From assembly GCF_056746865.1 (NCBI RefSeq), contig NZ_CM163382.1: a DNA stretch of 64,000 bases; one strand, given 5' to 3'. Position 1 is the first letter of the stretch, and the number at the start of each line of letters is the position of its first letter. The position numbers were made by a program, and so were the translations under genes. The notes below the pieces were generated by a model. It was not told where the DNA came from, did no database searches, and saw only the letters and a program-made list of their open reading frames with translations. Of the stretch, positions 34,498-37,058 are shown piece by piece.

Positions 34498-34812
34498 TTA
34501 CTGGAGTAAGAGTATGGACGGGATTGTTTTCCACCCATGCCCTTTCTGGAATCCCGGTGTCGCCGGAACATTCCCTTCACTGGTAGAGAAATACGAGCGA
34601 TCTTTCTGTGCCACCATCGACTTACAGATAAATACGGTAGCTGTTCCGTTCTGCAAATCCCGGGCATACGCCGTGTTGGAATAAGGCACAACGACCGGGC
34701 CTGTGGGCGGAGGAGGAGGGGACCAGCAGGGATCGGGAAATGCGCCAGCAGATTTCCCGTCAGACGCTCTGGAGCAGGCTTCCCGCCCGTTGATATAAAC
34801 GTTAGTTTCCAT
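34498..34812 (-). pseudogene. Truncated PAAR-like (DUF4150-type) N-terminal fragment of a secreted-effector gene
   Basis: METNVYINGREACSRASDGKSAGAFPDPCWSPPPPPTGPVVVPYSNTAYARDLQNGTATVFICKSMVAQKDRSYFSTSEGN... follows the DUF4150 pattern (FPDxC..PPP..PvPYpN...S.GdE) as I recall it; the ORF stops after 104 aa with no toxin domain. Confidence 0.5.
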
Positions 34813-34865
34813 AATGTGCTATCCGTGTACCCACTTTCCTTTAAATTAACTGCTGGCCCGGGAGG

Positions 34866-35906
34866 CTATTCAAACGCCATTGAATCAAAGAGGACATTCC
34901 AGGCATTACCATCATAAATAGCAGCTCCTCTGGAGCCACAAACCATCATCACTGTCCCATCGGGGGAAACATCAATTCTTTTACTTAAAACGGCCACTTC
35001 AGGAGGGACGGGTTTATGTTTTGCATGCATGGCGAGCACCAGTTTGTCATCTTCCAGTACCCAGATGCCATAATCACTGGCACACCAGAGACGTCCATCA
35101 AACCATCCCATGTCGAGGAAAGGCATGGTCATTCCACCATGCGTAATTTGTGTCCATTGCTCATTGCGACCCTTCCATATAGCACCGTCAAAATCAGCAA
35201 TATAAACAAATCCGTCACCGGCACAGCAAACTGTGTACAGAAGTTTATTTGTCGGAAAAGGGAGTTTTTTCCATTGCTCACCATTAAAGTGATAAACGGT
35301 TCCCGTTCCACCCACTGCATACATATCTGACTCGGAAAAACCAGATAAATCCTGAAATAAGCTTCTGGACATCGACTCAGCCTTCCGTTCCAGGAATCCA
35401 TCGGGAACAGGAATAGTTTGTGAAGCATCCAGCCAAACCTGATGATTAATTCGTTTATATATTCTTAACCCTCCCCCAATTGCATAGACACTTGTTCCTA
35501 CTCTGACTACCTTAATTATAGCTGTTCTCATGTCTGAGGATTTAGAAATAGGAATATCCAGATTATTTTCTCGTCCCTTGTATTCTCTGGTTTTGTAGCT
35601 TATGACTTCACAGTCGATATCAACTATAACTAATTCAGTTTGGGAAGGTGACCATCCAGCCGATATCGTTGGATAGCTCAAATTACCGAAAGACATCCCA
35701 AACACCCTGTTTTCAGGAGGGTTGTCAATAACTATTGATACCAGCTTGTGTTTAGGCATGTAATAGTCGTTGCCATATTCGATATGATTTTCATCAATTT
35801 TTTCAATTAATAATAAGCCAACGCGGCCATGTTCAAAGCCATATGTACAATCATATACTTCAAAATTTTTAAAGGTTTTATCCCAACGTTCTTGACTAAT
35901 AATCAT
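34866..35906 (-). CDS. Repeat (beta-propeller-like) family protein, paralog B (346 aa); candidate immunity protein
   Basis: Five to six blade-like repeats (VYAIGGGLRIY, MYAVGGTGTVYHFNGEQW, CCAGDGFVYIADFDGAIWKG, WCASDYGIWVL, MVCGSRGAAIYDGNAW); C-terminal half identical to paralog A. Confidence 0.6.
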   Translation of the reverse strand: MIISQERWDKTFKNFEVYDCTYGFEHGRVGLLLIEKIDENHIEYGNDYYMPKHKLVSIVIDNPPENRVFGMSFGNLSYPTISAGWSPSQTELVIVDIDCEVISYKTREYKGRENNLDIPISKSSDMRTAIIKVVRVGTSVYAIGGGLRIYKRINHQVWLDASQTIPVPDGFLERKAESMSRSLFQDLSGFSESDMYAVGGTGTVYHFNGEQWKKLPFPTNKLLYTVCCAGDGFVYIADFDGAIWKGRNEQWTQITHGGMTMPFLDMGWFDGRLWCASDYGIWVLEDDKLVLAMHAKHKPVPPEVAVLSKRIDVSPDGTVMMVCGSRGAAIYDGNAWNVLFDSMAFE

Positions 35907-36017
35907 TTCATTTCCTTAGTTATCACAATTATCATCATAGCTATCTATAAACGTTAGTTTCCATAATATGCTATCCGTGTGCCCACTTTCCTTTAAATTA
36001 ACTGCTGGCCCGGGAGG

Positions 36018-37058
36018 CTATTCAAACGCCATTGAATCAAAGAGGACATTCCAGGCATTACCATCATAAATAGCAGCTCCTCTGGAACCACAAACCATCA
36101 TCACGGTCCCATCGGGTGAAACATCAATTCTTTTACTTAAAACGGCCACTTCAGGAGGGACGGGTTTATGTTTTGCATGCATGGCAAGCACCAGTTTGTC
36201 ATCTTCCAGCACCCAGATGCCATAATCACTGGCACACCAGAGACGTCCATCAAACCATCCCATGTCGAGGAATGGCATGGTCATTCCACCATGCGTAATT
36301 TGTGTCCATTGTTCATTGCGACCCTTCCATATAGCACCGTCAAAATCAGCAATATAAACAAATCCGTCACCGGCACAGCAAACTGTGTACAGAAGTTTAT
36401 TTGTCGGAAAAGGGAGTTGTTTCCATTGCTCACCATTAAAGTGATAAACCGTTCCCGTTCCGCCCACTGCATACATATCCGATTCGGAAAAACCAGATAA
36501 ATCTCGGAATCGACTTCTGGTTATTGCTTCTACCTTCCTATCTAACAATCCATCGGGGACAGGCAGGTATGTAGAATGTTCCCGCCAAATTTGGTGATCA
36601 ACACGTTTGTATATTCTGAAACCACTACCGATAGCGTAAACACTGTTTTCAATTCGTACTACTTTTATTATAACGGAAAACATATCGATAGAACCTGGTA
36701 TGAGTATATTTATACTTTCTTCTACTCCTTTGTATACATCTTCTTTATAACTCATAACATCACGGTCCTGACTGACCATAACATATTCGGTCTGAGATGG
36801 GGGCCAACCAGAAGATATAGTCATCAGAGATATCCCTGTTGCGCGACGACCATATATGCGATATTTTTTGGAGAGGGTAAACGTAATGGAAATTAATCTC
36901 TTTTCAGGTGGGTAAAAAGGGTTTTCATATTCGGCATGCTCCTCATCTACCACTTCAATCAATGAAAGACCTACTTTTCCATGCTCGTAACCATAGGTGC
37001 AGTCATATATATAAAAGCCTTTGAGATATTTCTGATACGATTCTATATCTATGATCAT
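36018..37058 (-). CDS. Repeat (beta-propeller-like) family protein, paralog A (346 aa); candidate immunity protein
   Basis: Same architecture as paralog B; N-terminal half divergent, C-terminal half near-identical at the nucleotide level. Confidence 0.6.
   Translation of the reverse strand: MIIDIESYQKYLKGFYIYDCTYGYEHGKVGLSLIEVVDEEHAEYENPFYPPEKRLISITFTLSKKYRIYGRRATGISLMTISSGWPPSQTEYVMVSQDRDVMSYKEDVYKGVEESINILIPGSIDMFSVIIKVVRIENSVYAIGSGFRIYKRVDHQIWREHSTYLPVPDGLLDRKVEAITRSRFRDLSGFSESDMYAVGGTGTVYHFNGEQWKQLPFPTNKLLYTVCCAGDGFVYIADFDGAIWKGRNEQWTQITHGGMTMPFLDMGWFDGRLWCASDYGIWVLEDDKLVLAMHAKHKPVPPEVAVLSKRIDVSPDGTVMMVCGSRGAAIYDGNAWNVLFDSMAFE

Follow-up and report, generated by a model that had tools for sequence, protein, structure and literature searches.

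How can two neighbouring genes be nearly identical in one half and far apart in the other? A window of 64,000 nt of E. coli DNA (contig NZ_CM163382.1) raises this question: it carries two intact 346-aa genes on the minus strand, immA and immB, described in an initial annotation as chimeras with shared C-terminal and divergent N-terminal halves. We find that the locus is likely a decayed T6SS toxin-immunity array. Recombination between its modules made the mosaic, the toxins were later lost, and immA and immB would remain as orphan immunity genes.

A 558-nt direct repeat with sharp limits

An offset scan and a list of mismatches define a direct repeat of 558 nt, at positions 34794-35351 and 35946-36503 of the plus strand. 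The copies lie at an offset of 1152 and are identical at 544 of 558 positions (97.5%), with 14 mismatches. The near-identical block of about 560 bp with few substitutions, seen by the initial annotation at this offset, is confirmed; its coordinates, given there as 34790-35350 and 35942-36500, had to be moved by about 4 nt. Both the inner and the outer limit are sharp. At the same offset, identity drops to about 25-35%, the random level, below 34794, and to about 55-65% above 35351. Rather than diverging uniformly along their length, the two genes thus show a step-like edge.

The first copy contains codons 186-346 and the stop codon of immA (34866-35351), a spacer of 53 nt (34813-34865) and 19 nt of a PAAR-like toxin remnant (34794-34812). 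The second is built alike, from codons 186-346 and the stop codon of immB (36018-36503), a 53-nt spacer (35965-36017) and 19 nt of a deleted toxin gene, toxin A (35946-35964). These 19 nt are the first of the PAAR-like ORF, ATGGAAACTAACGTTTATA. As proposed earlier, the block covers the 3' half of each gene, the downstream spacer and the start of the PAAR-like ORF.

In the coding part of the block immA and immB differ at 12 positions, 11 of them synonymous. Over the 72 positions of the non-coding spacer and toxin start, the two E. coli copies have just 2 differences, against a much lower similarity of the spacer, judged by eye, to the spacers of Escherichia whittamii and of a metagenomic locus (L007). 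Two antisense ORFs within the block (35016-35330 and 36168-36500, plus strand) were dismissed: 11 synonymous changes to 1 non-synonymous fit the minus-strand frame.

Two gene types share one 3' half

The A-type gene immA (34866-35906, minus strand; WP_000587252.1) and its B-type paralog immB (36018-37058, minus strand; WP_000582607.1) have clearly diverged in their 5' halves, as first noted, with 57% identity in DNA and 52% in protein. Synonymous sites are saturated there (pS 0.78; dN 0.43), against a dS of 0.115 and a dN of 0.003 in the 3' half. The substitution pattern shifts at codons 181-195.

Each 5' half has its own relatives. For immA the nearest is the E. whittamii array's second immunity gene (77% nt). 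For immB the nearest are P0006, a metagenomic protein (81% nt), and, in E. whittamii, the array's first immunity gene (74% nt). The 3' half of immB shares 93-94% identity with the A-type relatives Esp_2 and P0002, and 85-90% with P0006, P0008 and Esp_1, which are of the B type. In a quartet test against E. whittamii, 89 sites of the 5' halves group by gene type, versus 8 and 7; of the 3' halves, 20 sites group by genome, versus 0 and 2.

The chimeric nature of both genes is borne out by this incongruence, together with the contrast in synonymous divergence and the near-identical non-coding spacer. The segmental duplication, as the repeat had been called, is not a fresh one: immA and immB belong to different immunity types, and each has a relative of its own in other taxa. 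The tract is sharp, synonymous divergence is lowered inside it, and only there are the paralogs closer to each other than to their orthologs, which is the pattern of gene conversion and concerted evolution. The 3' halves of a third paralog, immC, and of other subtypes do not share the block of immA and immB (about 52% nt).

Intact modules in related loci

The E. whittamii array (L008, strain Sa2BVA5) is colinear with that of the window, in B-then-A order and with an intact toxin between both immunity genes. In full, L008 reads VgrG, DUF6484, DUF2169, a ketoacyl-synthase-like (KAS-like) gene, a toxin of 528 aa, an immunity gene of 346 aa, a toxin of 532 aa and another immunity gene of 346 aa. 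[quoted passage not shown] In L006 a cluster of this type adjoins Hcp and VipA. The 346-aa gene begins 10 nt past the toxin stop on the same strand in L004, which carries a Salmonella toxin (2251-3846), and in L006 and L008. The intact module is an effector of about 530 aa followed by a 346-aa beta-propeller immunity gene.

L008 is itself a mosaic. Its modules are 92-100% identical over about 600 nt of the toxin 5' part and 100% identical in the last ~370 nt of the immunity gene, with 45-75% in the toxin C-terminus and immunity 5' half. Independent identity tracts with other breakpoints occur in L008, L021, L018 and L073, and L007 and L008 share one identical cassette with a different 3' flank, the break lying at codon 192. 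What varies between neighbouring modules is a central cassette that combines the toxin C-terminus with immunity blades 1-3; the 5' part of the toxin and the 3' half of the immunity gene (blades 4-7) are similar. The three immunity paralogs of the L006 array belong to different subtypes and have no near-identical block, so homogenisation needs pre-existing similarity.

Three toxin remnants and an orphan island

All three toxin genes of the window, each on the minus strand, are deletion remnants, and none of its effectors is intact. Toxin A, an A-type PAAR-like/Tox-GHH2 gene, survives at 35916-35964 as its first 19 nt (35964-35946) and its last 30 nt including the stop (35945-35916), as judged by comparison with L008 6136-7734. 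The internal deletion of about 1.55 kb lies at an ATA microhomology. It removed the toxin gene between immB and immA and so set the outer edge of the repeat.

Toxin B is reduced to the 3' ~370 nt of a B-type gene (37059-37432): its 5' 1.2 kb are gone, and small indels throw its last part out of frame. The ORF at 37084-37383 still matches Tox-GHH2 (PF15635; E 8.8e-08). In the toxin C remnant (34467-34812), 272 nt of a PAAR-like 5' end (34812-34541), which share 94% identity with the corresponding end of the E. whittamii toxin, are fused to about 75 nt from the 3' end of a C-type toxin; its ORF at 34498-34812 matches Tox-PAAR-like (E 1.5e-11). Each immunity gene in the window is preceded by the 3' end of its matching toxin. 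The third, more divergent paralog, immC (32120-34466, minus strand), measures 336 aa in IS-free strains and is split here by IS2 at 32757-34086. Both immA and immB remain intact and show purifying selection (dN/dS about 0.03 in the shared half) beside broken cognate toxins, as in an orphan immunity array.

The array lies between nfrB and cusS and is flanked by IS elements and further toxin/immunity scraps. A linkage to hcp/vgrG, DUF2169 and accessory genes is absent in the window. Its sole trace is a 203-nt scrap (31777-31979, minus strand) of the KAS-like accessory gene, which in intact clusters stands before the toxin; the DNA of the scrap matches L008 3195-3397 at 93.6% identity. Since the array abuts cusS and this scrap alone is left, the window holds an orphan remnant and not a working module. 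A promoter and terminator scan gave 5 promoter-like sites, fewer than the mean of 11.3 in shuffles; the one at the toxin A junction fits the consensus only weakly.

Fold and family of the immunity proteins

The AlphaFold2 model of the immunity protein (pLDDT 95, pTM 0.93) is a propeller of seven four-stranded blades, as counted by reading the secondary-structure string. Of the seven strand groups, the fourth opens with strand 183-191, and residue 186 lies within that strand. Foldseek matches are WD40 and tectonin propellers, at TM values of about 0.55-0.6. At the sequence level, Pfam gave a sub-threshold Tectonin match only, NCBIfam gave no match, and a search of the PDB returned only designed 'Cake' propellers. 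No Proteus or P. aeruginosa protein is named among the matches of profile searches, cluster look-ups and an exhaustive HMM search, the last comprising the best 150 of 866 strong matches, listed without names. The structure of TseV3/TsiV3 has been reported (PMC9635880); none of the top 50 Foldseek matches is described as TsiV3, the presence of which in the library is unconfirmed.

Distant homologs are 50-60% identical in the C-terminal half versus 30-40% in the N-terminal half (aa), and across the family 77 of 79 paralog pairs from a shared locus are more similar in the 3' half. A stronger, family-wide constraint on blades 4-7 explains part of the difference between the halves. The same direction holds for synonymous sites: of the 16 pairs tested, 15 have the lower pS in the 3' half. 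Mosaic paralogs with lower synonymous divergence in the 3' half occur in Escherichia, Paraburkholderia, Chitinimonas, Roseateles, Acidovorax and Pseudomonas.

An invariant arrangement in E. coli

The block is present in 152 of 5426 complete E. coli genomes, in exactly two copies each, and both halves of immA and immB are at least 99% identical in all 152. The carriers are a group of strains that includes EAEC 042 and one ST69 isolate. In strains MS20675, 118UI and 042 both copies have the exact sequence and the same offset, and the protein accessions of immA and immB are identical. The comparison across strains proposed by the initial annotation yielded no alternative N- or C-terminal combination of immA and immB among the 152 carriers. 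An intact toxin of matching type was absent at the DNA level from all 5426 genomes (best coverage 25%), as was a vgrG context for the array from the E. coli genomes examined.

As the arrangement is the same in 152 of the 5426 genomes, the exchange is old and fixed rather than ongoing. The 14 differences (dS 0.115), with invariance over these 152 genomes, show that no homogenisation is under way. The exchange had been called recent, which holds in a relative sense for a block that is 2.5% divergent.

Origin of the mosaic

Recombination or gene conversion between cassettes, as first suggested, accounts for the dS contrast, the near-identical spacer and the phylogenetic incongruence with E. whittamii. 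Gene conversion or unequal crossover, as forms of homologous recombination between neighbouring modules, would have carried the 3' half of one immunity gene, with the spacer and the start of the toxin gene, over to the other module, probably from the A-type to the B-type module if the similarities of the immB 3' half are a guide. Insertion of a cassette between pre-existing conserved flanks is a further route, indistinguishable from these two. The inner breakpoint would be codon 186, where the similarity of A and B types starts. Later the toxin gene between immB and immA was cut to 19 and 30 nt, which trimmed the repeat to 558 nt, and the two remaining toxin genes were likewise destroyed. Most likely, immA and immB are orphan immunity genes, each specific for a different toxin through its divergent N-terminal half; they would guard against GHH2 effectors injected by other enterobacteria.

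The two genes might instead be old duplicates that never recombined, with a 3' half slowed by stronger purifying selection on blades 4-7 than on blades 1-3. The better conservation of the C-terminal half throughout the family (50-60% versus 30-40%; 77 of 79 pairs) agrees with this, but selection on the protein leaves unexplained the synonymous contrast (0.115 versus saturation), the near-identical non-coding spacer and toxin start, the step-like edge and the clustering of 3' halves by genome instead of by type; we consider it very unlikely. It is scarcely conceivable that one immunity gene was duplicated in tandem recently within E. coli and that diversifying selection then drove its 5' half apart very fast. 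The copies do stand in tandem with equal gene lengths, and arms-race selection on immunity interfaces is plausible (PMC5714391). Against this, the synonymous sites of the 5' half are saturated, each 5' half is nearer to other taxa (77% and 81% nt) than to its neighbour (57%), E. whittamii has the B-then-A order with an intact toxin in between, and the 3'-end remnant of a different toxin lies upstream of immA. As to an assembly or collapse artefact, nothing beyond the general risk of repeats in assemblies speaks for it, and independent complete genomes show two copies with the same 14 differences at the same offset; its probability is negligible.

Inter-module recombination, our preferred reading, leaves room as to where and when it took place, and in this alone differs an origin of the chimeras outside E. 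coli, with horizontal acquisition of the array and its block by an ancestor and decay since. Such an origin has a nearly even chance of being right. It agrees with an arrangement and blocks identical in 042, 118UI and MS20675 and halves at least 99% identical in 152 carriers, with the want of an intact toxin or vgrG context in any E. coli genome examined, with a block dS of 0.115 that looks old against within-lineage variation, and with the IS elements and toxin/immunity scraps beside the island. No observation speaks directly against it, though a donor with the same block was not found, the nearest 3' halves elsewhere being 93-94% identical.

More tentatively, the immunity 3' half (blades 4-7) and the 5' part of the next toxin may serve as homology flanks around a co-adapted cassette of toxin C-terminus and blades 1-3. 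This is possible rather than probable. The recurrent mosaics and the cassette that L007 and L008 share with a different 3' flank are compatible with two such flanks and are no proof of them. If true, plain double homologous recombination could swap, insert or homogenise matched toxin-antidote interfaces, unlike the one-sided homology-facilitated illegitimate recombination at other T6SS effector loci (PMC11751169).

Comparison with known systems

In position, immA and immB sit where the immunity genes of PAAR-like/Tox-GHH2 T6SS nuclease effectors sit, as in PefD/PefE of Proteus and Tse7/Tsi7 of Pseudomonas. In P. mirabilis the effector PefD (PAAR, Phasin2, Tox-GHH2) is followed by PefE, a propeller-like protein that neutralises it and was modelled with blades; the orphan PefE2 differs from PefE mainly in the N-terminal half, and specificity has been mapped to residues 92-195 (PMC5714391). 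Both the intact relatives and the window remnants have this toxin architecture, and the immunity gene lies directly downstream of the toxin. Compared by position and fold, both immunity proteins are predicted beta-propellers of comparable length (346 aa here against 320 aa in PefE). The pef operon likewise has a second, orphan copy nearby, beside transposase and rhs scraps, paralog differences gathered in the N-terminal half, and the hcp/vgrG/DUF2169 context found in relatives of the E. coli array. In contrast to pef, the window has no linked intact toxin or secretion genes, and its three immunity genes are all orphans. The 5' halves of immA and immB are also far more divergent (52% aa) than PefE and PefE2 (89% overall), and the shared part is a DNA-level recombination block reaching the spacer and the next toxin.

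The effector Tse7 (PA0099) combines DUF4150/PAAR-like and Tox-GHH2 domains (PMC4067218, PMC9846239), and at its locus effector-immunity pairs are swapped through recombination (PMC11751169). The Tse7/Tsi7 pair (PA0099/PA0100, vgrG1b cluster) is accompanied by DUF2169 and a ketoacyl-synthase-like gene, as are the modules of L006 and L008. Tse7 is shorter (315-386 aa), and the E. coli locus lacks an effector. Linkage of a module to hcp/vgrG, DUF2169 and accessory genes has been named 'synteny type A' (PMC11883445); it is present in L006 and L008 and absent in the window.

Orphan immunity arrays arising by sequential effector displacement are described for Vibrio cholerae (PMC5361080) and agrobacteria (PMC8546570). 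They resemble the E. coli array in immunity genes kept after toxin loss, in toxin scraps upstream of the orphans and in mosaics from recombination inside vgrG loci. Those arrays follow an active effector within a T6SS auxiliary cluster, whereas the E. coli array is detached from any T6SS genes. Its use of homology partly within the immunity gene is a feature not encountered in the portions of these reports consulted here.

Meaning for toxin-antidote arrays

The locus shows in sequence detail the decay of a toxin-antidote array to an antidote-only island. Current views of polymorphic toxin loci stand, and the mosaic is a real yet fairly ordinary trait of such a decayed array. Exchange of this kind had been proposed to diversify these loci; conversion of the 3' half instead makes the genes more alike. 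The E. coli group that includes 042 and the ST69 isolate keeps two antidotes of differing predicted specificity, probably directed at nuclease toxins of relatives such as Salmonella and E. whittamii. As natural chimeras of propeller N- and C-halves, immA and immB suggest that specificity resides in blades 1-3, which agrees with the experiments on PefE chimeras. Homogenised 3' halves recur in distant taxa and suggest a testable rule of cassette exchange in this effector-immunity family.

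A sharply bounded block shared by two immunity genes

A repeat search of 32000-40000 revealed a direct repeat with a start-to-start spacing of 1152 nt. In a plus-strand scan at this offset the identity profile is step-shaped: it lies at random level (about 25-35%) below 34794, reaches 94-100% from 34800 to 35349 and stays at 55-68% over most of the range above the block. The exact block, 34794-35351 versus 35946-36503, spans 558 nt with 14 mismatches (97.5% identity); the limits proposed in the initial annotation were right to within 4 nt. Each copy contains codons 186-346 and the stop of a minus-strand gene of 346 codons, immA (35906-34866) or immB (37058-36018), a 53-nt spacer and the initial 19 nt of a PAAR-like ORF (ATGGAAACTAACGTTTATA).

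Relatives of the 346-aa protein occur in Salmonella, Citrobacter, Kluyvera, Escherichia whittamii and many Burkholderiales, and an exhaustive profile search gathered 866 clusters at E ≤1e-30. In E. whittamii Sa2BVA5 the gene order is VgrG, DUF6484, DUF2169, ketoacyl-synthase-like, toxin, immunity, toxin, immunity; the first toxin has 528 aa (PAAR-like and Tox-GHH2), the second 532 aa, and both immunity genes encode 346 aa. The same cluster in CP053318.1 adjoins Hcp and VipA, followed by two more toxin/immunity remnants. Genomic context settles the predicted role of the 346-aa genes.

The AlphaFold2 model of ImmA (pLDDT 95, pTM 0.93) has seven groups of β-strands, which we read as seven putative blades. 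Residue 186 belongs to strand 183-191, which opens the fourth group, and Foldseek matches the model to WD40 and tectonin propellers. In giant proteins of 2000-6700 aa (P0158, P0174, P0188, P0197, P0226 and P0251), one blade region, around profile positions 170-250, is matched 25-45 times in tandem; these are probably unrelated repeat proteins with a blade motif in common.

An array that has lost its toxins

BLAST against the two intact clusters shows the E. coli array to be colinear with that of E. whittamii, with every toxin gene broken. Toxin B retains only its last ~370 nt (37432-37059), including a 99-aa ORF upstream of immB (37383-37084) that Pfam assigns to Tox-GHH2. Toxin C (34812-34467) joins 272 nt of its 5' end to about 75 nt of its 3' end, and the 104-aa ORF downstream of immA (34812-34498) matches Tox-PAAR-like. 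In toxin A (35964-35916), 19 nt of the 5' end meet the last 30 nt, ~1.55 kb having been deleted at an ATA microhomology. This deletion sets the outer edge of the repeat, and the 5' parts of the two intact E. whittamii toxins are 92-100% alike over ~600 nt; the ancestral shared block was therefore probably larger than 558 nt.

Across the toxin A junction, just upstream of immA (35934-35963, minus strand), lie the promoter-like hexamers TGGAAA and TATGAT with an 18-nt gap. The match is 9/12 and shuffled controls contain more promoter-like sites than this region, so that a promoter here is only hinted at.

In most strains, among them the IS-free MS20675, 118UI and 042, the third and more divergent paralog, immC, is an intact gene of 336 aa. 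In the window it is split by an IS2 (IS3-family) at 32757-34086, an arrangement with one counterpart among other complete genomes, SCU-105 (match at least 80%).

Downstream of immC, a 203-nt scrap (31777-31979, minus strand) corresponds to the 3' end of the ketoacyl-synthase-like T6SS accessory gene of E. whittamii, with 93.6% identity (94% at the amino-acid level over 69 residues); in intact clusters that gene lies upstream of the toxins. Beside the scrap are 45 nt from the 3' half of an immunity gene (31621-31665), and the pair points to either a rearrangement or another decayed cluster. Further on, 28189-31476 holds two transposase copies of the ISAs1/ISEc1 (H-repeat) type, of which one is broken, an intact SUKH-3 immunity gene (29691-30152) preceded by the C-terminal scrap of a YwqJ-like deaminase (30155-30355), and an ORF (29404-29673) resembling a YD/Rhs-repeat scrap by eye, with only a sub-threshold Pfam match, to BrxL_ATPase. 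The SUKH-3 gene and these scraps show that orphan immunity genes belonging to several toxin families accumulate in the island. Between nfrB and the ISAs1 copies (25865-27941) lie several small AT-rich ORFs of 178, 142, 148 and 80 aa without a match in Pfam; they may encode additional orphan immunity proteins or membrane proteins.

Exchange rather than constraint alone

Nei-Gojobori counts between immA and immB give a saturated pS of 0.78 and a dN of 0.43 for codons 1-185, versus a dS of 0.115 and a dN of 0.003 for codons 186-346, the switch falling within the codon window 181-195. Coding positions of the block account for 12 differences, 11 of them synonymous; the 72 non-coding nt (spacer and toxin start) add 2. 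By eye, the E. coli spacer is far less similar to those of E. whittamii and the metagenome contig L007. Plain constraint accounts for part of the contrast between the halves, and distant homologs still have 50-60% amino-acid identity in the C-terminal half versus 30-40% in the N-terminal half. Constraint at the protein level alone cannot produce the synonymous and spacer pattern, and the recombinational origin first proposed for this mosaic is upheld by the dS contrast and the near-identical spacer.

The 5' halves, as initially noted, have clearly diverged, being only 57% alike. The nearest counterpart of the immA 5' half is the second immunity gene of E. whittamii (77% at the nucleotide level); for the immB 5' half the nearest are metagenomic P0006 (81%) and the first gene of E. 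whittamii (74%). Within E. coli the 3' halves reach 98% identity, compared with 85-94% to closer relatives and 81-82% to Salmonella-type genes. When the two E. whittamii genes complete a quartet, 89 informative sites of the 5' half group by type, against 8 and 7, and 20 sites of the 3' half group by genome, against 0 and 2. This pattern is what concerted evolution leaves behind; replacement of a cassette between conserved flanks could equally account for it. Exchange from A to B is favoured by these comparisons, since the 3' half of immB is nearer to A-type relatives (93-94%) than to the B-type P0006, P0008 and first E. whittamii gene (85-90%). A two-sided cassette exchange via homology flanks is conceivable because the homology tract sits inside the immunity gene and extends into the next toxin, and we regard it as rather unlikely.

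The last ~370 nt of the two E. whittamii immunity genes are 100% identical, with a breakpoint unlike that of E. coli; this tract is independent of the E. coli one. The L007 copy is identical to the second E. whittamii module through codon 191, where a cluster of mismatches begins: the same cassette with a different flank.

Age and distribution of the block

Both 5' halves occur at ≥99% identity in 152 of 5426 complete E. coli genomes, including EAEC 042 and an O15:H18 ST69 strain, and every carrier has exactly two block copies. MS20675, 118UI and 042 share both exact blocks, the offset and the immA/immB protein accessions; the 14 differences are thus fixed, with no sign of ongoing conversion. 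The exchange between cassettes put forward initially stands; its recency is relative. Polarised with outgroups, differences at codons ≥214 are mostly single derived changes in one or other copy; at codons 192-203 the alleles also occur in outgroups, which fits the proximity of a tract edge. No intact PAAR-like/Tox-GHH2 toxin was found at the DNA level in complete E. coli genomes. It may well be that the exchange took place before E. coli acquired the island.

Two to five paralogs are present in 25 of the 75 fetched loci that contain a family member. The 3' half is more similar in DNA in 77 of 79 within-locus pairs (median difference 12 points), and its pS is lower in 15 of 16 selected pairs. 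Values for the 5' versus 3' half are 0.35 versus 0.12 in Paraburkholderia, 0.78 versus 0.30 in Chitinimonas and 0.84 versus 0.35 in Roseateles, uncorrected and affected by high-GC codon bias and by 5' halves that are harder to align. Identity profiles are step-shaped, with differing breakpoints, in the three loci profiled, L021 (5805-8020), L018 (3111-7993) and L073 (5006-7029).

Tandem paralogs with divergent 5' and near-identical 3' parts were seen in Paraburkholderia bannensis, Chitinimonas prasina, Roseateles depolymerans, Acidovorax soli and Pseudomonas sp. BN417 (loci L021, L018, L073, L026 and L067). In L021 the two immunity genes follow each other directly, without an intervening toxin.

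Relation to known systems

The E. coli and E. whittamii modules share their architecture with the Proteus mirabilis pef operon, to whose PefE the immunity proteins are presumably homologous. There, the toxic PefD (PAAR, Phasin2, Tox-GHH2) has its antidote encoded downstream: PefE, of 320 aa, for which a propeller structure was modelled. Most of the differences between PefE and the orphan PefE2, encoded close by, fall in the N-terminal half, a variability thus already described; chimeras placed specificity within aa 92-195 and, more narrowly, within aa 136-158 (PMC5714391). The Pseudomonas aeruginosa vgrG1b/Tse7 cluster matches likewise, with a putative homology to Tsi7 (PMC4067218, PMC9846239, PMC11883445), and effector swapping at tse7 has been reported (PMC11751169). 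Orphan immunity arrays and recombination mosaics in vgrG loci are described in two further reports (PMC5361080, PMC8546570). The E. coli block is a clear, well-resolved case of a known kind of event, at a locus since left without toxins; its one less familiar aspect is the position of the homology tract, within the immunity gene and onward into the following toxin.
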